A stretch of 64,000 nt of DNA from Lentisphaerota bacterium (lineage in GTDB: Bacteria > Verrucomicrobiota > Kiritimatiellia > UBA8416 > JAUUYL01). The DNA is taken from assembly GCA_030590485.1 (NCBI GenBank), contig JAUUYL010000001.1:21760-85759 (forward strand). The letters are read 5' to 3'. Below the pieces are notes generated by a model. It made no database searches and was not told the origin of the DNA. It saw only the letters and a list, made by a program, of their open reading frames with translations. The position numbers and the translations under genes are program-made. Positions 28,374-61,103 of the stretch are shown here, one piece after another; positions within the stretch are counted from its first letter, which is position 1, and each line of letters begins with the position of its first letter.

Positions 28374-29542
28374 TCAACATGCTCCCACATAGCGATCATT
28401 TTATCAGCTAAAGAATCTACAAGGAATCTATTAGTCAGTTGCATTTTGCCTTCTTTTGCATAGCGCGAGCTAAGTTTTTTATCGGCAAGTAGTTTTGTAA
28501 CCCCATCGCATAGTTTCAGCTTGTCTCCACAATTCGCGATGATTCCTGTTTTATCACAATCGATAAGTTCGACTGACCCACTTGTGGAAGTTGACACCAC
28601 CGGAACCCCGCTTAAATAAGATTCGAGAACAACCCGCCCAAAGCTCTCGTGATCTGATGTTAACAAAAAGACATCTGCGGCTGCATATACTTGAGGCAAC
28701 TTGTCATGTGCGACTGCCCCAAGTAAAGTAAACCTATCCTTTAGCCCTTTCTCATCAATATATTTTTTTGCTTCATCAAACATCACGCCATCACCAGCCA
28801 TCACAAAGTGAACATTATTTACATTTAATGCTATTCGTTCTGCTACTTCTATCCATAAAGGCAGGTTTTTGGGTGGATAAAAGTTACCGACAAACAAAAC
28901 AACACGCTTGCGTTTGATAGCAGGATCTATCAAACGCTTATAATATTCTTTATTCTCGTGGTCTGAGACTGGCATGAAGTTGGCGCCGACAGGAACAACA
29001 TGCAACCTCTGGAGAGAGATTCCCAAAACACTATTAACTTCGTTTTTAAGGTATTCAGAAACAACACGAACTCCATCAGAATGCCTTAGCAAATGACTTG
29101 CTACTCGATAACGCCACTGATTAAGTATATGCTCTTTCCGCCAACCTCTCGAAAAAAGATCAAAGTGCAATTGAGGAAGATACTTTGCCTTCACGAGCCG
29201 GCTGTAAAGGTAACCGACAGTACCTTCTTCCCATGGAGTCTGTACTGTCACCAGATCAGGCCGCCAGTTTTTTAAAGCAAATACAATAATACGTATCACA
29301 TCAAACAAGTAGAATATTCTGAATAATGAATTAGTCGGATAAAGGGCTAAACCGTCATCAAGAGTTTGTACACCGTACTCCTCGCTCTTTAAACTATAAC
29401 CAATAAGTCTTATTTCACTATCATTGCCGTATTTTTCACGAAGCATTGACGCATACAGCTGGTGTCGCTTACGAGTGTCACTTGTAATATTGTTTGCGGT
29501 CGAAAAAACAGACCTGTCTTTGCTCAAGATCAGAACCTTCAT
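28370..29542 (-). CDS. glycosyltransferase family 4
   Basis: HESFGRVVLESYLSGVPVVSTSTSGSVELI. Confidence 0.8.
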   Translation of the reverse strand: MKVLILSKDRSVFSTANNITSDTRKRHQLYASMLREKYGNDSEIRLIGYSLKSEEYGVQTLDDGLALYPTNSLFRIFYLFDVIRIIVFALKNWRPDLVTVQTPWEEGTVGYLYSRLVKAKYLPQLHFDLFSRGWRKEHILNQWRYRVASHLLRHSDGVRVVSEYLKNEVNSVLGISLQRLHVVPVGANFMPVSDHENKEYYKRLIDPAIKRKRVVLFVGNFYPPKNLPLWIEVAERIALNVNNVHFVMAGDGVMFDEAKKYIDEKGLKDRFTLLGAVAHDKLPQVYAAADVFLLTSDHESFGRVVLESYLSGVPVVSTSTSGSVELIDCDKTGIIANCGDKLKLCDGVTKLLADKKLSSRYAKEGKMQLTNRFLVDSLADKMIAMWEHVE

Positions 29543-30669
29543 TTAACCTCTTCTTTCAGCAAACTATCAGTCTCATCAACCATTCTGCTAAATTTAAAAG
29601 TTTTTTGGCAATATTCCAGAGCTTGCTCAACGAGCTGCTCTCTGCGAGACTGATTGTCTAAAGTAGATACCACGGCCTTTTCCAATTCGCCCAGTTCTCC
29701 AAATGGGATCAGGCACCCCGTTTTGCCATCTATGACAGCTTCACCTGTTCCTCCAACATCCGTTGCTATTACGGGAACACCAGCTAACATCGCTTCGAGA
29801 GCAACATGCGGAAGCCCTTCGTATGAAGAGTTCAAGATAAATAGATCCGATTGGAATAACAAATTTGACACTTTTTGCTTCGTTATATTTCCGGTAAAGA
29901 TAACTCGATCATTTAGCCCCTGCCTCTCCACTTGAAGATCAAGCTCTTGCCTTAAAGGTCCATCACCAACAATAACTAAACGGCAGTTATTTAACCTCTC
30001 TAATGCATCAATGATAGAAGCAACACCTTTCCAGGGAGTAAGCCGACACACTGTGATTAAAGTATTACCATTAAACTCTGGCAATGCATCGTCGCCTTCG
30101 ATAGCCTCGGGCAACTCTACTGCGTTATAAACAACCTGGATTTTTTCACTAGGAATTTTCCATGCACTAACGATTCTTTTCAAATAGTTACTTGGGGTTA
30201 TGACCTTTGCTGCATGCCTGAGTGGTGTTGTTCTAATAAAGTCCAGTATCTTTAAGACAATACCTTTAGAAGCACTTTGGTACTCATCAATAGTCCCAGT
30301 GAAAAGACCTTTGTTTCGGGCCCGCTCCCAGGCATAATCGCCCACTATCTTATGCACTGCAGGTTTTCTGGTTATAAAGGAAGCCAGCATAGATTCAAAG
30401 CCTAAGCCATTAACATAAATTAAATCTGCATTTTTCGCATACCTGACAATTACTGCAACAGTCTTCATCCAGCGCAAAGGCTTAAACACAGTACGAGCTA
30501 CTCTTATCAGAGCAAAGTTATAATGATCATCATGTTCAAGATTGTCACTAAGGGTAATAACCGAAACCCTATGCCCTCTATCAATAAACTCTGCCGCGAC
30601 CTTCGAAACATATGACGCAGGACCGCCAATATCTGGAGGGAAAATACCTGTTACTATGACAATATTCAT
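29539..30669 (-). CDS. glycosyltransferase family 4
   Basis: YEGLPHVALEAMLAGVPVIATDVGGTGEAV. Confidence 0.8.
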   Translation of the reverse strand: MNIVIVTGIFPPDIGGPASYVSKVAAEFIDRGHRVSVITLSDNLEHDDHYNFALIRVARTVFKPLRWMKTVAVIVRYAKNADLIYVNGLGFESMLASFITRKPAVHKIVGDYAWERARNKGLFTGTIDEYQSASKGIVLKILDFIRTTPLRHAAKVITPSNYLKRIVSAWKIPSEKIQVVYNAVELPEAIEGDDALPEFNGNTLITVCRLTPWKGVASIIDALERLNNCRLVIVGDGPLRQELDLQVERQGLNDRVIFTGNITKQKVSNLLFQSDLFILNSSYEGLPHVALEAMLAGVPVIATDVGGTGEAVIDGKTGCLIPFGELGELEKAVVSTLDNQSRREQLVEQALEYCQKTFKFSRMVDETDSLLKEEVK

Positions 30670-43929: not shown

Positions 43930-44754
43930 TCAATGCGGACGCATGTTCCTGATATTTGCGATTCTTTCAGATGGTTCAATGAATGACATCCGTGCAGATT
44001 CACTTGGGAGATGAAGTTGATGAACCCTCTTCCGGAGATCCAGCTCATGCACTCGCTCACACAGGAGCCGTTCGAGTTCCTCATGAGTCAGGTTTGGCAT
44101 ACGAAGTCGGGTTCTCACTACCTCCAGATCGTACCGTACACCGCGATTGATATACATATCGAGGTCATAGAGATCCCGCAGTTGCTTACGGAGCAGTACG
44201 GCTGCAGCTTTACGAGCCATATGTGATGAATCTTCCAGAACAAGTATTTGCAGCGAGCGGTCCGTAATGGGAGAGGAAACCTGCACGCGCTCACCCGGCA
44301 GCAAGGCATCAATATCAATATTAAAATTAATGTCACCTGGGTGATCCACGAAAAGCCGGGGGAACATCTCTTTCAAAGTGTTCGCCTTAAAGCAAAGCTT
44401 CATGCCAATATCGCCCCTGTGCCATTGTTCCCGAACGCAATTGATTTTGATTCCGACATTACCCAGTTCGCGGATTACAGGGTCGAGAGCATGATGCACC
44501 ATAACCTCACGGTCTTTTTTCTGAATGTTAAGAAAATTGCTCAATGAGAAATCCATGTCCATAGAGTAGCGGGGCGATCCATCAATATAGCGCATCTTGC
44601 ACCCCCCGTGCAGAATGAGTCCGCGCATTTCTTGAGCACTAATAATTCGAAGAATCTCAAGGTGCAGAAACTCACGCACCGAATCTGAGGACTCATCTCG
44701 GCCCGTTCGGCGAACAAATTCTCTATATCGAATCTGTGCAGCGAATTCACTCAT
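43930..44754 (-). CDS. abiEii: AbiEii/AbiGii-family nucleotidyltransferase toxin (type IV TA / abortive infection)
   Basis: LHGGCKMRYIDGSPRYSMDMDFS nucleotidyltransferase motif. 274 aa. 8-nt overlap with the upstream antitoxin. Confidence 0.75.
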   Translation of the reverse strand: MSEFAAQIRYREFVRRTGRDESSDSVREFLHLEILRIISAQEMRGLILHGGCKMRYIDGSPRYSMDMDFSLSNFLNIQKKDREVMVHHALDPVIRELGNVGIKINCVREQWHRGDIGMKLCFKANTLKEMFPRLFVDHPGDINFNIDIDALLPGERVQVSSPITDRSLQILVLEDSSHMARKAAAVLLRKQLRDLYDLDMYINRGVRYDLEVVRTRLRMPNLTHEELERLLCERVHELDLRKRVHQLHLPSESARMSFIEPSERIANIRNMRPH

Positions 44755-45352
44755 GACAATACTCCTTTAACAGACGACTGAACCTCTTCACCTTTGGCGA
44801 CCGGGCAGCCAATTCGGCAAAACGATCTGCATTCAATGCGTCGGGCTGTAATCCCATATCCTCAAAATATGTGTATTCAGGAATGGCGGCCCGATCCAGG
44901 TAGATTCGATCAAGCAACGCTTTCTCTGCCGTTGCGACCCGGATAGAACCATGCTGAGACTCTTCCACCTCCCACCCCCAGTACAGGCTCGGAGGAATCT
45001 TAGACACCACAACTTCCGTACTTCTTAAATTAAATCCTCTGACACGACGTACGCATGCAAGATCGAGCCGGTAGATCCGATCCAACAGCATACCATGATA
45101 AGACATCGCCGACTCAAGACTGATATAGCCGTCAGGCACTAGCGAGCAGGCAGCTACCGGCGCGTTAACCTCGATATCCCTTACCAGGTATGCACCTCGC
45201 GTCACTCGCTCCAGCAATCCCTGCTTCTGCCAACGACTAATACTGACAAGGACCGACGACCATACTAATCCGTTACTAATCGCAAAGGCCTTGAAATCGC
45301 AGGTGCGAACCAGCCCTCCTCGATGAACCTTATATATATCCGCCATATTCAT
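44747..45352 (-). CDS. abiEi: AbiEi-family antitoxin/transcriptional regulator
   Basis: 201 aa. GYISLESAMSYHGML is the typical AbiEi_4 block. Overlaps abiEii. Confidence 0.7.
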   Translation of the reverse strand: MNMADIYKVHRGGLVRTCDFKAFAISNGLVWSSVLVSISRWQKQGLLERVTRGAYLVRDIEVNAPVAACSLVPDGYISLESAMSYHGMLLDRIYRLDLACVRRVRGFNLRSTEVVVSKIPPSLYWGWEVEESQHGSIRVATAEKALLDRIYLDRAAIPEYTYFEDMGLQPDALNADRFAELAARSPKVKRFSRLLKEYCHE

Positions 45353-45605: not shown

Positions 45606-46490
45606 TCACCTCAGCACCATCCGGTCTGTCACGCTTAGTTGTCCGAAAAAGGGACTGAGATCCATTATGAGCTTCATGTCGTATTCGCGCCGTTCTTTCA
45701 GGCGTTTCCAAGGGTAGAACGTGAATTCAGTATAAGCACCACGTGGATCATCCCTGAAGCTTCTTGTCATCTTTAGCTTTTTCGAATCCTTTTCATAGAT
45801 ATTCAGCCTGGCTTTGTCACTTATGCCTGATTCTGGAATCAACCCCAGCTTCCCGACCGAGATTTTACCTCTAACGTGAGGTGGGTCACTCCGGTGATCC
45901 CATCGCCCCTTCAAGACCGGAGGCTGCAATAGGTGCACAACCTCAATATACACGGCGTCATTCATCGTCACATCCAAACTCCCTTTAAGCACAAATTTTG
46001 ATTTTTGAGCTTTCTTCAAATCTTTTAAAATACAAGAAATCTCGACATCTACATCAAGATCCAAGTCGTCCCACAGGGAACGTGCCTTTATATCAATATC
46101 GGTCGACAGATCGACCTCACCATATTTCGATCTGAGAGAAACCGAGGGGAACACATACACACCAGCCCTTTTCCGACCCTTCAGACGAACAGGTTTGCCG
46201 TATCTGGCATGCTCCGGAATATATACATAGACATAGTCATGATGAGATAGCTTCTTGACGGAATCAAACACCAGATAGACGACTTCAGATGCTTTGCTCC
46301 CATATTGCAGTGCAGAATAACAGGCGTATTCCTTGGCCCTTAAATCTTTGATTGGCAAATCCATTCCTCGGGTTTTCTCAACTGCCTCATACTTCAACCA
46401 ATCAACTTCTTCCCCCTGACAAATGGACAAAAAGGTGATTTGGCTGACAATCATCAATACCAGAAGTCTCTTCGCTCTCATAATCATCAT
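45606..46490 (-). CDS. hypothetical secreted protein (N-terminal signal peptide)
   Basis: MMIMRAKRLLVLMIVSQITFLSICQG signal-like N-terminus. 294 aa. No recognised domain. Confidence 0.5.
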   Translation of the reverse strand: MMIMRAKRLLVLMIVSQITFLSICQGEEVDWLKYEAVEKTRGMDLPIKDLRAKEYACYSALQYGSKASEVVYLVFDSVKKLSHHDYVYVYIPEHARYGKPVRLKGRKRAGVYVFPSVSLRSKYGEVDLSTDIDIKARSLWDDLDLDVDVEISCILKDLKKAQKSKFVLKGSLDVTMNDAVYIEVVHLLQPPVLKGRWDHRSDPPHVRGKISVGKLGLIPESGISDKARLNIYEKDSKKLKMTRSFRDDPRGAYTEFTFYPWKRLKERREYDMKLIMDLSPFFGQLSVTDRMVLR

Positions 46491-46523: not shown

Positions 46524-48062
46524 CTACCTCCACAAATCCCGATCCAGAGTTCTATATTGGATAGCTTCAGCTATATGCTCACTCTTAATTTCTTCGCAAG
46601 CATCAAGATCAGCCATTGTGCGCGCAACTTTCAAAATCCTGTCGTAAGCTCTGGCACTGAAATGTAAGTCCGCCATAGCCGTACGAAGCAGCCCTTGAGC
46701 GTCGCCTTTGAGAAGGCAATATTTCTGGAGATCTTTAGAACTCATGCCGGAATTGCAATGTATATTTTTACGGTTCTTAAATCTCGCACTCTGTATCTTC
46801 CTGCATTGAACAACACGTGCCCGGACAACGCTCGAAGGCTCACCCTTCTCAAGTGATGAGAGCTCTCTGTACTCTATCGATGGGACCTCCACGTGAATAT
46901 CTATCCTGTCCAACAGCGGTCCAGATATCTTGTTTCTGTAATTCTGTATTTCTCTCTGCGAGCACCTGCATTCCCTTTTCCTGTCGCCAAAATATCCGCA
47001 TTTACAAGGGTTCATTGCTGCGACCAGCATAAATTGGCAGGGAAACGTTACTGTCCCAGCCGCCCGAGATATGGTAACATCCCCATCTTCCAGAGGCTGA
47101 CGCATTACCTCCAGAACATTTCTGTGAAATTCGGGCAATTCGTCCAAAAACAGTACACCTCGATGAGCAAGACTAACCTCTCCTGGCACAGGATGAGCAC
47201 CACCCCCAAGAAGTCCCGCATCCGATATAGTATGGTGTGGCGCGCGAAATGCCCTCTTAACAATCAACGCCTGGCGCGCCTTCAATACTCCCGCAATGCT
47301 GTGGATCTTTGTGGCCTCAAGAGCCTCTTCCAGCGGCATCTCTGGCAGAATAGAAACTATCCTCTTCGCAAGCATTGTTTTACCTGTTCCTGGGCTTCCT
47401 ATCATGAGCATATTATGACCGCCTGCTACAGCAACCTCCATGGCTCTCTTTGCCTGTTCCTGCCCCTTTACATCAGAGAAATCATGCTCATAGTCACGAT
47501 GAGACTCATAAAAGTCATTAACATCAATCTTATATGGTTTCTGATGCAATTCACCACTCACAAAATCAATCGCCTGTCGCAACGTTCTTACTGGATAGAC
47601 ATCAATGCCATCAACAACAGCCGCTTCAGCCGCATTGTCTGCAGGCACAATGATTCCTCGAATTCCTCTCTTGCGAGCGCATAAGGTTATTGGAAGAACA
47701 CCCTTCACCCGTCGTACCTCACCACTCAACGCCAATTCACCCGTCATAGCTATTTCATTAAGCATAGACGCTTCACCATTCGCTCCTGTTGCGGCAATCA
47801 TGCCTACGGCTATTGGCAAATCAAAACTGGGCCCCTCTTTCTTAATATCAGCCGGCGCAAGATTTATTGTTGTTCGACCTATACCCGGCCTGAATCCGGA
47901 ATTTACAATCGCAGTATACACCCTGTCCTTGCTTTCTTTTACCGCCGCATCAGGCAGCCCAACTATCACAATAGCCGGATCTCCATGCCCTGCATTCACT
48001 TCAATCTCCACCATATAGGCATCCACCCCATACACTGCTCCGGAAAAAACGGTCTTTAGCAT
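46524..48062 (-). CDS. yifB: YifB/ComM-family Mg-chelatase-like AAA+ ATPase
   Basis: MLKTVFSGAVYGVDAYMVEIEVNAGHGDPAIVIVGLPDAAVKESKDRV. Walker A GSPGTGKTMLAKR. C-terminal Mg_chelatase_C. Confidence 0.9.
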   Translation of the reverse strand: MLKTVFSGAVYGVDAYMVEIEVNAGHGDPAIVIVGLPDAAVKESKDRVYTAIVNSGFRPGIGRTTINLAPADIKKEGPSFDLPIAVGMIAATGANGEASMLNEIAMTGELALSGEVRRVKGVLPITLCARKRGIRGIIVPADNAAEAAVVDGIDVYPVRTLRQAIDFVSGELHQKPYKIDVNDFYESHRDYEHDFSDVKGQEQAKRAMEVAVAGGHNMLMIGSPGTGKTMLAKRIVSILPEMPLEEALEATKIHSIAGVLKARQALIVKRAFRAPHHTISDAGLLGGGAHPVPGEVSLAHRGVLFLDELPEFHRNVLEVMRQPLEDGDVTISRAAGTVTFPCQFMLVAAMNPCKCGYFGDRKRECRCSQREIQNYRNKISGPLLDRIDIHVEVPSIEYRELSSLEKGEPSSVVRARVVQCRKIQSARFKNRKNIHCNSGMSSKDLQKYCLLKGDAQGLLRTAMADLHFSARAYDRILKVARTMADLDACEEIKSEHIAEAIQYRTLDRDLWR

Positions 48063-48472
48063 GATGTTTCCCCCGGCCCAGGACTATTGACTATGGACGG
48101 TGGACGGTGGAAAGAAGTCCGTGATTCAATACTGTTAATCAGACCGTATAGCGGCGCAAAGGTTCCATCAATTTGCTTTGTCAGTTCCTCAAAAGAATTT
48201 GCAGTGATATAAGCAAGATCTCTGGCAAGCAGCAAAAAGTATTCAGCCTCCTTGAGTGATGAATACGCTATATTGAGAAACTTTAAATAATCCCTAGGTG
48301 TCGACCTTGCGGACCCTTCCACAATATTTGATGGAACACTATATGCGGCTCTCCGAATCTGACTTGTCAGAGCAAATCGTTCGTCATCGGGGAATGATCT
48401 CGTAATGCCATAAATAGCAATTGCCAAATCATGCCCTCTCTGCCATGCAACTATCTTCTTATACCGTCTCAT
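48056..48472 (-). CDS. four-helix-bundle protein (23S rRNA intervening-sequence protein family)
   Basis: MRRYKKIVAWQRGHDLAIAIYGITRSFPDDERFALTSQIRRAAYSVPSNIVEG...EAEYFLLLARDL is the canonical family sequence. Start taken at the ATG ending 48472, not the GTG of track ORF 48056..48517. Its stop overlaps the yifB ATG (ATGCTAA). Confidence 0.85.
   Translation of the reverse strand: MRRYKKIVAWQRGHDLAIAIYGITRSFPDDERFALTSQIRRAAYSVPSNIVEGSARSTPRDYLKFLNIAYSSLKEAEYFLLLARDLAYITANSFEELTKQIDGTFAPLYGLINSIESRTSFHRPPSIVNSPGPGETSC
48081..48110. repeat. left arm of a ~30-bp imperfect inverted repeat (GGACTATTGACTATGGACGGTGGACGGTGG); partner at 48492..48524
   Basis: Reverse complement of 48492..48524 is GGACTGTGGACTGTGGGACGGTGGGACGGTTGG. 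Each arm is built from doubled 7-8-mers (GGACTRT x2, GGACGGT x2). Confidence 0.6.
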
Positions 48473-48491
48473 ACTTCTCCCTCTCGTAGCC

Positions 48492-48524
48492 AACCGTCCC
48501 ACCGTCCCACAGTCCACAGTCCAT
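48492..48524. repeat. right arm of the inverted repeat flanking the four-helix-bundle gene
   Basis: CCAACCGTCCCACCGTCCCACAGTCCACAGTCC, read directly from the sequence. Confidence 0.6.
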
Positions 48525-48559
48525 TAAATCTCATCATTCATCACTCCTAATTCATCACT

Positions 48560-48588
48560 TGGGTAAAGATTCTAGCAGAATCTTTACC
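48560..48588. repeat. perfect palindrome GGGTAAAGATTCT-AGC-AGAATCTTTACCC (13-bp stem) between tonB and the four-helix-bundle gene; two further 6-bp-stem hairpins at 48621..48637 and 48668..48686
   Basis: Read directly from the sequence. Function unknown (operator or RNA structure). Confidence 0.5.
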
Positions 48589-48709
48589 CATCTGTCTGTC
48601 GGGGTAACCCTGATTTTTTCTGTAGGGATTTCCCCTACAAAGGCGTAAGGTTTTGGCTTAGGGAATGTGTAAGGTTTCACCTTACAGAGGGAGTAACGGA
48701 CGCGGCATG

Positions 48710-49297
48710 TTAGTCTTTCAACTGAAAACGAAATGTGTATTCAACATCTTCCCCACCGACAGGAGCACCGGACTGAGAAATGAAAATCGCTTTATTCATC
48801 GCCTTTACAGCCGCCCTGTCCAGGGCATGATAACCGCTGGACTCAGCAATCAACACGTCGAGAGCATGACCGGAATCGCCCAAGACCGCCGTCACGACTA
48901 CCACACCTTCTTCGCCCCTGATTCTCGACCCATATGGATATTGCGGCCTTATCGTACTTTGCGCCACCAGTTTACTATCAACACCCTTCTCAAGAAAATC
49001 CGCATTACGCTCCTCTTCCGGGGGCGGCTTGAGATGAACAATCTCTTCGATCAGCTTTAAAGGATACAATGCTTCAGCAGGCAACGGCAACACCGGCTCT
49101 TGAATCTCAGGCTCCACTTTTTTTACAACTGGAGGAAGAAGCGTGAGCTCAACGCTCGATTCACCCGTCTGAAAAACTGGCTGAACCAGACCGACCTTCA
49201 TTCTGAAAAAACTGCCAGCACAGTAGCCTGCTGCCACATGAAGCAACAAAGCCAGAAGAAACGCTCGAATGAAATCTGATGTCCTGTTTCTTTTCAC
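48710..49297 (-). CDS. tonB: TonB-family energy transducer (TonB_C domain; could function as TolA-like)
   Basis: N-terminal TM helix, Pro/Glu-rich spacer, C-terminal PQYPYGSRIRGEEGVVVVTAVLGDSGHALDVLIAESSGYHALDRAAVKAM. Confidence 0.8.
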   Translation of the reverse strand: MKRNRTSDFIRAFLLALLLHVAAGYCAGSFFRMKVGLVQPVFQTGESSVELTLLPPVVKKVEPEIQEPVLPLPAEALYPLKLIEEIVHLKPPPEEERNADFLEKGVDSKLVAQSTIRPQYPYGSRIRGEEGVVVVTAVLGDSGHALDVLIAESSGYHALDRAAVKAMNKAIFISQSGAPVGGEDVEYTFRFQLKD

Positions 49298-61071: not shown

Positions 61072-61103
61072 CCTACTGCCTACTGCCTATTGCCTATTGC
61101 CTA
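61072..61103. repeat. heptanucleotide tandem repeat (CCTACTG x2, CCTATTG x2, CCTA) filling the mraZ-rsmH intergenic spacer
   Basis: Direct reading. On the coding (minus) strand it is TAGGCAA TAGGCAA TAGGCAG TAGGCAG TAGG, ending 4 nt before the rsmH ATG. Confidence 0.6.

Follow-up and report, generated by a model that had tools for sequence, protein, structure and literature searches.

A PF05635 gene bracketed by complementary heptamer arrays in a protein-coding operon spacer probably resembles the intervening sequences of 23S rRNA

Introduction

Why should a gene of the protein family carried by intervening sequences (IVSs) of 23S ribosomal RNA (rRNA) lie between two protein-coding genes, bracketed by two repeat arrays that are complementary to each other? 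The question is raised by a four-helix-bundle protein gene (PF05635 / TIGR02436) on the minus strand of a 64-kb stretch of DNA from Lentisphaerota bacterium (contig JAUUYL010000001.1; hereafter the window, meaning the whole 64,000 nucleotides analysed), where it occupies the spacer between a tonB-like gene and yifB/comM. A sequence-only reading of the locus had taken the gene and its flanking repeats for a small insertion in the yifB leader, similar to an IVS or to a miniature inverted-repeat transposable element (MITE). On balance, our analysis indicates that the locus probably holds an IVS-type gene cassette, which sits in a protein-coding operon spacer instead of 23S rRNA, is looped out by the stem of its two arms and is likely a substrate of RNase III.

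IVSs have been known for decades with no agreement on their origin or role, and the heptamers that are over-represented in bacterial intergenic regions likewise have no agreed function. Small proteins with a four-helix bundle, for their part, rank among the more common bacterial proteins that are still uncharacterised. The locus described here and a comparison of 78 loci tie the three together and open the old IVS question to simple experiments.

The gene and its predicted stem

The four-helix-bundle protein gene (48056..48472, minus strand) encodes 138 aa from the ATG at 48472 and was identified by its matches to PF05635 (E=6.6e-34, 116.8 bits; curated cut-off 33.8) and TIGR02436 (E=1.6e-33, 115.2 bits; cut-off 24). 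Its nearest solved structure is 2GSC (E=2.6e-24), the pentameric XCC0516, whose entry contains five chains of one sequence. The open reading frame (ORF) has no internal stop, and the protein keeps all 12 of the columns that are invariant in a set of 25 diverse homologues (E31, Q38, R41, S45, N49, I50, E52, G53, L66, S72, E75 and L86); the gene is intact. The conserved domain spans residues 1 to ~118, while residues 119-138 form a 20-residue read-through tail across the 3' arm and the ribosome-binding region of yifB. A Shine-Dalgarno-like GAGGGAG, read from the sequence at 48477..48483 (minus strand), lies 4 nt 5' of the ATG, in the loop and outside the stem described below.

The 5' arm (48492..48524, minus strand) is G-rich and reads AT GGACTGT GGACTGT GGGACGGT GGGACGGT TG on the coding strand. 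The 3' arm (48081..48110, minus strand) is C-rich and reads CC ACCGTCC ACCGTCC ATAGTCA ATAGTCC on the coding strand, corresponding to GGACTAT TGACTAT GGACGGT GGACGGT GG on the plus strand. Both are tandem arrays, for which Tandem Repeats Finder returned period 7 at 48094-48111 and 48507-48523 and period 8 at 48493-48515. Repeat searches and predicted pairing uphold the earlier claim that inverted repeats at these two places bracket the gene, and the claim that the arms are built of duplicated 7-8-mers is confirmed as well. The 3' arm had also been placed inside the gene's own 3' end; this holds for the ORF, but not for the conserved fold, as the arm falls in the read-through tail.

With arms of 30-33 nt and a loop of ~381 nt, a stem of ~30 bp is predicted, and the repeat search placed an inverted-repeat core of 18 nt with 89% complementarity between the arms. 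The RNA duplex of arm with arm was computed at -47.7 kcal/mol, whereas shuffled arms gave -22.2 +/- 4.0. In transcripts of 481, 861 and 1601 nt alike, bases of the 5' arm were predicted to pair with the 3' arm at a probability of 0.81, and for 29 of the 33 bases of the 5' arm the value was above 0.5. The stem was also present in the minimum-free-energy fold of 48060-48540 (z = -3.5), so that both kinds of folding analysis recovered the long-range stem that the sequence-only reading had proposed to look for. The inverted-repeat score of the cassette was reached at 3 of 419 other sliding positions in the window, none of which carried tandem repeats. A second long-range inverted repeat, at 29002-29626 within glycosyltransferase genes, was not reproduced by the repeat search and was rejected as chance.

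The search for further copies of the arms, which had been suggested as a sign of mobility, found none elsewhere in the window. The 16-mer GGACGGTGGACGGTGG, with up to 3 mismatches allowed, was confined to the cassette arms (3 hits in the window versus 0.2 expected), and the 64-kb window holds no second PF05635 gene. With a single copy in the window, the copy-number test gives no support for mobility here.

Based on these features, we propose that the unit consists of a PF05635 gene flanked 5' by a G-rich array of some four 7/8-mers and 3' by a complementary C-rich array, and that it would have entered the tonB-yifB spacer in the lineage of the window. Having no convincing promoter of its own, it would be transcribed with its neighbours. 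In the transcript, the arms would pair into a stem of ~30 bp, looping out the small gene and bringing the flanking host RNA together. By analogy with the IVSs of rRNA, RNase III would be expected to cut the stem. Such a cut would detach the short transcript of the small gene from those of its neighbours, and the yifB mRNA would then begin ~20-45 nt upstream of the ATG; given the predicted stem, processing of this mRNA by RNase III is plausible. Because both Shine-Dalgarno-like sequences (48483-48477 and 48074-48070) lie outside the stem, both genes would be translatable after cleavage. Moreover, the ORF of the cassette has no stop of its own and reads through across the 3' arm, so that translating ribosomes would melt the stem and could re-initiate on yifB.

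The downstream gene, yifB/comM (46524..48062, minus strand), encodes a Mg-chelatase-like AAA ATPase (PF01078, E=2.7e-97, plus PF13541 and PF13335). Its start codon (48062-48060) overlaps the stop of the cassette ORF (48058-48056) in the sequence ATGCTAA (48056..48062, minus strand), as had been reported. The start is backed by orthologues, with MLRTIFSG in a relative (locus L082) and MLKTVFSG in the window. A Shine-Dalgarno-like GGGGG, read from the sequence at 48070..48074 (minus strand), lies 7 nt 5' of the ATG and 6 nt 3' of the stem end; L082 has GGGGAGAG at this place. The TAA of the cassette is supplied by codons 2-3 of yifB. To regard this overlap as part of the design of the element was an over-reading: among the 55 loci with inverted arms in the survey described below (the window included), the ORF stops before the 3' arm in 37, inside it in 16 and beyond it in just 2. 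The read-through to yifB is therefore best seen as an accident of the copy in the window, yet it may couple the translation of yifB to that of the small ORF, and such translational coupling at ATGCTAA appears possible from the sequence.

Comparison with relatives lacking the cassette

The YifB protein of the window is 70-79% identical to those of Kiritimatiellia-like genomes, with which it groups the window, and five yifB relatives with 74-79% amino acid identity were read. A PF05635-like ORF near yifB is absent in all five. In three of them tonB adjoins yifB (L082, 79%; L081, 78%; L088, 77%), with spacers of 157, 533 and 98 nt, respectively, compared with 647 nt in the window, while L087 and the L083/L089 pair have other yifB neighbours. 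The spacer of the window aligns with those of L082 and L081 over a conserved hairpin pair and at the yifB start, and the ~444-nt cassette stands out as a clean extra block. The proposal of an insertion into the yifB leader is therefore well founded, and the parsimonious reading of the alignments is that the cassette was gained in the window's lineage.

No target-site duplication was found: the outer flanks, GATTTAAT and TGGGCC, share no direct repeat. The flanks are too diverged for the insertion boundaries to be fixed to the base. Immediately 5' of the 5' arm, Tandem Repeats Finder and the alignment to L082 revealed a degenerate period-7 tract, GTGATGA ATTAGGA GTGATGA ATGATGA (48531..48557, minus strand). 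This tract (48557-48531) aligns with a period-7 tract (CGAATAT, 5.6 copies) located 5' of yifB in the cassette-free L082, and the alignment suggests that a heptamer tract was at the site before the insertion.

Survey of PF05635 loci

We sampled 80 PF05635 loci from species-representative genomes of Planctomycetota, Verrucomicrobiota, Bacteroidota, Acidobacteriota, Chloroflexota, Pseudomonadota, Patescibacteria and others, of which 78 were usable. For each locus, 215 nt around the gene start were aligned against the reverse complement of 320 nt around the gene end, with a score of at least 30 as the threshold; the same loci with positions shifted by 1.2-2 kb served as controls (n=265). A gene-flanking inverted repeat was present in 55/78 loci and in 1/265 controls (Mann-Whitney p = 2e-32), a recurrence which shows that the arms are not a chance feature. 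Of these 55 loci, 45 have arms of period 7 and 8 have arms of period 8; the medians are 34 nt for the arm, 406 nt for the loop and 4.4 units for the array. The density of period 6-9 arrays is 2.06 per kb up to 250 nt from the gene versus 0.33 per kb elsewhere, a 6-fold enrichment. The arrays are inverted in 54/78 loci and direct in 11/78, 8 of which also have an inverted partner, and neither arrangement was found in 21/78 at this threshold. None of 40 PF05635 loci scanned with Rfam resides in rRNA; the only known RNA families in these 40 related loci were tRNAs and nadA motifs, and the window contained none.

The layout also differs between strands. In 50/55 loci, G outnumbers C in the 5' arm (38% G, 11% C). 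In 48 of 52 loci (92%), the upstream neighbour has the same orientation as the gene, compared with 65% of the remaining neighbouring ORF pairs from these loci (p = 6e-6), with neighbour genes called by a crude longest-ORF heuristic. Upstream gene and 5' arm are separated by a median of 6 nt, 3' arm and downstream gene by a median of 11 nt, which leaves no room for a promoter and suggests that the cassettes are read within the host transcript. Cyanobacterial plasmids share the layout: on plasmid pNe_5 of Nostoc edaphicum (L085), arms of TAGGGAG x8 and TCCCTAC x5 flank a gene between nrdB and nrdA, and N. punctiforme has arms of the GGGTGTG and CACACCC types. The L085 cassette lies on the strand opposite to the ribonucleotide reductase subunit genes and is an exception to the co-orientation rule.

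Two PF05635 genes lie within 6 kb of each other in seven loci, and their units are unrelated between the copies, each 5' arm being complementary to its own 3' arm. A unit is still common to pairs of proteins at 83, 80, 73 and 70% identity and mostly not in the inspected pairs below ~65%, a pattern from which it appears that the arms descend with the gene and diverge as it does. Complementarity is thus kept while the sequence of the unit turns over, as expected of a constraint on pairing, and this argues against a terminal sequence recognised by a protein. Taken together, the sequence comparisons indicate that gene and complementary heptamer arrays are passed on together as a unit, mostly outside rRNA, inside operons and oriented like the upstream gene.

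These data bear directly on the possibility that the cassette is a mobile element acting at the DNA level, whose inverted arrays are termini or folded single-strand sites for a recombinase provided in trans or one with the four-helix-bundle protein as its cofactor, with any RNA stem being incidental. Its presence in the window and absence from relatives at the tonB-yifB spacer, the tight placement of the cassettes in intergenic spacers, the arms travelling with the ORF and the patchy distribution of PF05635 genes across phyla and plasmids are all in line with such an element. On the other hand, arms that differ between two copies in one genome provide no shared terminus for recognition, a target-site duplication is absent at 48524/48081, and neither a transposase nor an integrase was found within ~4 kb. 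The G/C asymmetry between strands and the co-orientation with the upstream gene would be unexpected for a symmetric DNA site. An identical cassette in two genomic contexts was not seen either, as the nine places of one protein (P0074) share their upstream genes. We therefore regard a DNA-level element as improbable, though worth keeping in mind.

The same nine places (L090-L098) had been considered as a case of transposition, because the P0074 protein is identical at all of them; this was rejected, since they represent one locus with shared upstream genes and a variable downstream region of O-antigen type. There, two PF05635 genes lie at the edge of a strain-variable ABC-transporter (Wzt) region that is O-antigen-like. 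The P0074 array unit, TAGACTG/TGGACGG, is like that of the window, and a poly-G run (9 vs 12) and single units vary between strains whose protein is identical.

A different account of the same arms is a translational switch that involves no cleavage: the purine-rich units of the 5' arm would be ribosome-binding sites sequestered by the C-rich 3' arm, and expression of both the small gene and the gene downstream would need melting of the stem or binding of the pentameric protein to its own four- to five-unit arrays. The start codon directly follows the purine-rich 5' arm in many loci, so that the repeat units must supply the Shine-Dalgarno sequence there. Across the family the units share a weak purine-G motif at fixed phase (4.68 bits versus a null of 4.16 +/- 0.11), behind which a ribosome-binding role may lie; a conserved heptamer motif was sought and rejected, this weak phase alone being found. 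The median array of 4.4 units beside the five chains of 2GSC, the median of 11 nt from the 3' arm to the next start codon, and the TAACTGA repeats of Beggiatoaceae, which mostly end 1 nt before the start codon (MacGregor 2015, PMC4679880), also fit such a switch. However, both Shine-Dalgarno-like sequences of the window (48477-48483 and 48070-48074) are outside the stem, the idea that the protein binds its own arrays is purely conjectural, and the sequence of the unit is unconserved whereas the protein is conserved. A switch of this kind thus seems to us an unlikely explanation for the locus.

The arms could also be a by-product without function, in which polymerase slippage expanded the heptamers and template switching between nearby inverted sequences kept them complementary. 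Heptameric intergenic repeats are over-represented in many bacteria and have no known role according to the authors who described them (PMC4692102; PMC4679880). Arrays vary among strains with an identical protein, arm mismatches show no bias for G-U over A-C, and arrays exist on their own, one of them in the window at 61072-61103. Yet slippage leaves unexplained why arrays cluster 6-fold around one gene family, why 54/78 loci have inverted and 11 have direct arrays, and why the 5' arm is the G-rich one and the upstream gene is co-oriented so often. We hold this explanation to be slightly weaker again.

Several further observations concern the arrays and proteins of the sampled loci. The inner junctions between arms and gene are short and unconserved, with no junction motif that marks a smaller mobile core. 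Inverted heptamer pairs without an ORF, having loops of 9-140 nt and units that differ from those of nearby cassettes, occur in L041 (5992-6060), L048 (4224-4300), L070 (1400-1464) and L078 (6125-6336); they resemble short ORF-less IVSs and the inverted GGGAATC pairs of Xanthomonas. In two loci, L043 (2648-3400), with arms of ~176 nt, and L079 (Planctomycetota), the unit is GGACGGT / GGACAGT as in the window and the proteins are just 35-40% identical, which could be convergence on a favoured unit or chance. A G-quadruplex as the general explanation of the arrays was rejected on inspection, because many units (AGTAGATA, GCTGAAA, CCAGTTA) have no G-runs. Many PF05635 homologues of ~143-148 aa (P0011-P0067) have a similar hydrophobic C-terminal extension (e.g. 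...KEVGIVGRFQAILVSALFITIGRL...), the sequence of which suggests a membrane-anchored subfamily. In other homologues, tails or N-terminal extensions are translated heptamer arrays (RANGQRLTANGQ, VTVDDRRQTVGN).

Comparison with known systems

The closest known counterpart is the ORF-bearing IVS of 23S rRNA. In Coxiella burnetii, this element carries an S23p ORF within a 28-bp terminal stem, with three tandem GACAGAT heptamers just 5' of the ORF; cuts by RNase III have been mapped experimentally, the 5' cut, determined by rapid amplification of cDNA ends (RACE), being at the start of the first heptamer, and the IVSs of Leptospira are described as of the same type (Warrier et al. 2016, PMC4990558). 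The cassette of the window shares with such elements the protein family, a stem of ~28-30 bp around a loop of ~400 nt, tandem heptamers in the 5' terminal region (GGACTGT x2 and GGGACGGT x2 in the window, GACAGAT x3 in Coxiella), and the lack of a promoter of its own with, presumably, carriage in the host transcript. This match in ORF family, predicted stem and heptamers substantiates the IVS-like architecture that the sequence-only reading had assigned to the locus. The differences are that ORF-bearing IVSs reside in helix 45 or 25 of 23S rRNA whereas the cassette resides in the tonB-yifB mRNA spacer, and that the window ORF is intact and reads through into the next gene. Cleavage in Coxiella removes the Shine-Dalgarno sequence of the ORF, whereas that of the window lies in the loop and would be retained. 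RNase III cutting, mapped for the Coxiella IVS, is extended to the cassette by analogy. Since the cassette is not in rRNA, it is not to be filed as an IVS, but most likely it works like one, judging from this analogy.

The comparison with a MITE proved less apt. Like a MITE, the cassette is a small element with inverted ends in an intergenic spacer. This classification was nevertheless rejected, because there is one copy in the 64 kb of the window, there is no target-site duplication, and the element is protein-coding. Furthermore, seven other genomes have two copies with different arms, so that the arms are not a shared transposase-binding terminus.

Several points weigh against the cassette we propose. 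Transcription through it and its cleavage are what we infer, and the same applies to coupling and to the mode of insertion. The window is atypical in having 187 nt between tonB and the 5' arm, and a weak promoter-like CAGACA-18-TAGAAT lies upstream of the cassette (48598-48569, minus strand). In 3/78 loci the arrays are direct with no inverted partner, and the flanks examined at the P0074 loci likewise show direct arrays with no inverted partner, so that the stem is not universal. Across the family, 56 arm mismatches are G-U-compatible and 69 are A-C; without an excess of G-U there is no direct signature of selection on a helix in the sense RNA. Among the period 7/8 arrays in the sampled loci, 131 adjoin a PF05635 gene, 14 are in ORF-less inverted pairs and 57 are solo, which indicates that heptamer arrays can persist without the gene; as the loci were picked via the protein, these counts give a biased estimate of the share that belongs to PF05635 genes. 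Finally, the closest other protein in the database is 64% identical to the cassette protein, and recent mobility is not demonstrable from it.

The other counterpart is the class of intergenic heptameric simple-sequence repeats. Cyanobacterial short tandemly repeated repetitive (STRR) heptamers belong to this kind of intergenic repeat. Inverted GGGAATC pairs number 70-75 per genome in Xanthomonas, and GGGGAYT is found in Nostoc (Rehm et al. 2015, PMC4692102), while TAACTGA occurs in Beggiatoaceae, cyanobacteria and Bacteroidetes (PMC4679880). These repeats and the cassette arms alike comprise some four tandem 7-mers, lie in short spacers whose flanking genes are co-oriented, are often G-rich along the coding strand, frequently come as inverted pairs and vary in length between close relatives; both the arms and the solo array at 61072-61103 fit the description of the class. 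The cassette is unlike them in that a PF05635 gene lies between its two arrays and each copy has a unit of its own, not a genome-wide one. In the two papers (PMC4692102; PMC4679880), the terms 'S23', 'helix bundle' and 'intervening' are absent and the repeats are not tied to a gene, and no link of non-rRNA PF05635 genes to heptamer arrays was found in the open-access literature, an incomplete sample.

This leads us to a wider hypothesis, which we put forward only tentatively. PF05635 genes with inverted heptamer arms may be promoter-less, self-looping cassettes that colonise operon spacers across many phyla; the ORF-bearing IVSs of 23S rRNA would be members that landed in rRNA, and some at least of the STRR, GGGAATC and TAACTGA repeats would be arms, relics or ORF-less derivatives of these cassettes. 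For annotation, this suggests that heptamer arrays are to be read as parts of cassettes. It is a conjecture that arrays beside PF05635 genes might be mistaken for clustered regularly interspaced short palindromic repeat (CRISPR) arrays or G-quadruplex motifs; '23S rRNA IVP' is among the abbreviations in the legend of a CRISPR-associated-gene figure in a large CRISPR-discovery screen (PMC10910872).

The cassette protein also has a weak sequence likeness to Avd, the accessory protein of diversity-generating retroelements (DGRs), and bAvd and the PF05635 protein are both pentamer-forming four-helix bundles. That the gene encodes an Avd is very improbable and is refuted for the region examined, as the matches to bAvd PF22296 (26 bits) and NF033474 DivGenRetAVD (34 bits) fall short of curated cut-offs of 40 and 80 bits, no reverse transcriptase was found up to ~4 kb away (template/variable repeat pairs were not searched for), and the neighbours are exbB, exbD, tonB, yifB, an ORF without a family match and an AbiEi/AbiEii pair. 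A paper on DGRs (PMC10053308) describes no heptamer arms for these elements.

Neighbouring features

On the minus strand, the gene order is a LysM protein gene, ftsW, exbB, exbD, tonB, the 647-nt spacer and yifB/comM. The tonB-like gene (48710..49297, minus strand), identified by profile search and by synteny in L081, L082 and L088, is the co-oriented upstream neighbour of the cassette and the last gene of exbB-exbD-tonB. Given the weak promoter-like site and the conserved upstream hairpins, the transcript that carries the cassette would be either the tonB operon message or the yifB leader.

The conserved hairpins are palindromic, GTARGG-N5-CCYTAC, and occur at 48622-48638 and 48669-48685 in the window and nowhere else in it, at 2854-2870 in L082 and at 2860-2876 in L081. 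They may serve to stabilise or terminate the exbBD-tonB message, or be part of the yifB leader. A perfect 14-bp hairpin, TGGGTAAAGATTCT / AGAATCTTTACCCA, with a 3-nt loop lies just upstream of the cassette (48560-48590), where it overlaps the weak promoter-like site; it is absent in L082.

Downstream of yifB, at 43930-45352 and 45606-46490, the window contains an AbiEi (201 aa) / AbiEii (274 aa) toxin-antitoxin pair and, between this pair and yifB, an ORF of 294 aa without a Pfam match.

The solo heptamer array at 61072-61103 takes up the 38-nt gap that separates the mraZ stop (61106) from the rsmH ATG (61067). Its coding strand is G-rich, reads TAGGCAA x2, TAGGCAG x2 and TAGG, and stops 4 nt short of the ATG. 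The window contains no inverted partner for this array, which, like the arms of the cassette, consists of 2+2 units of two variants.

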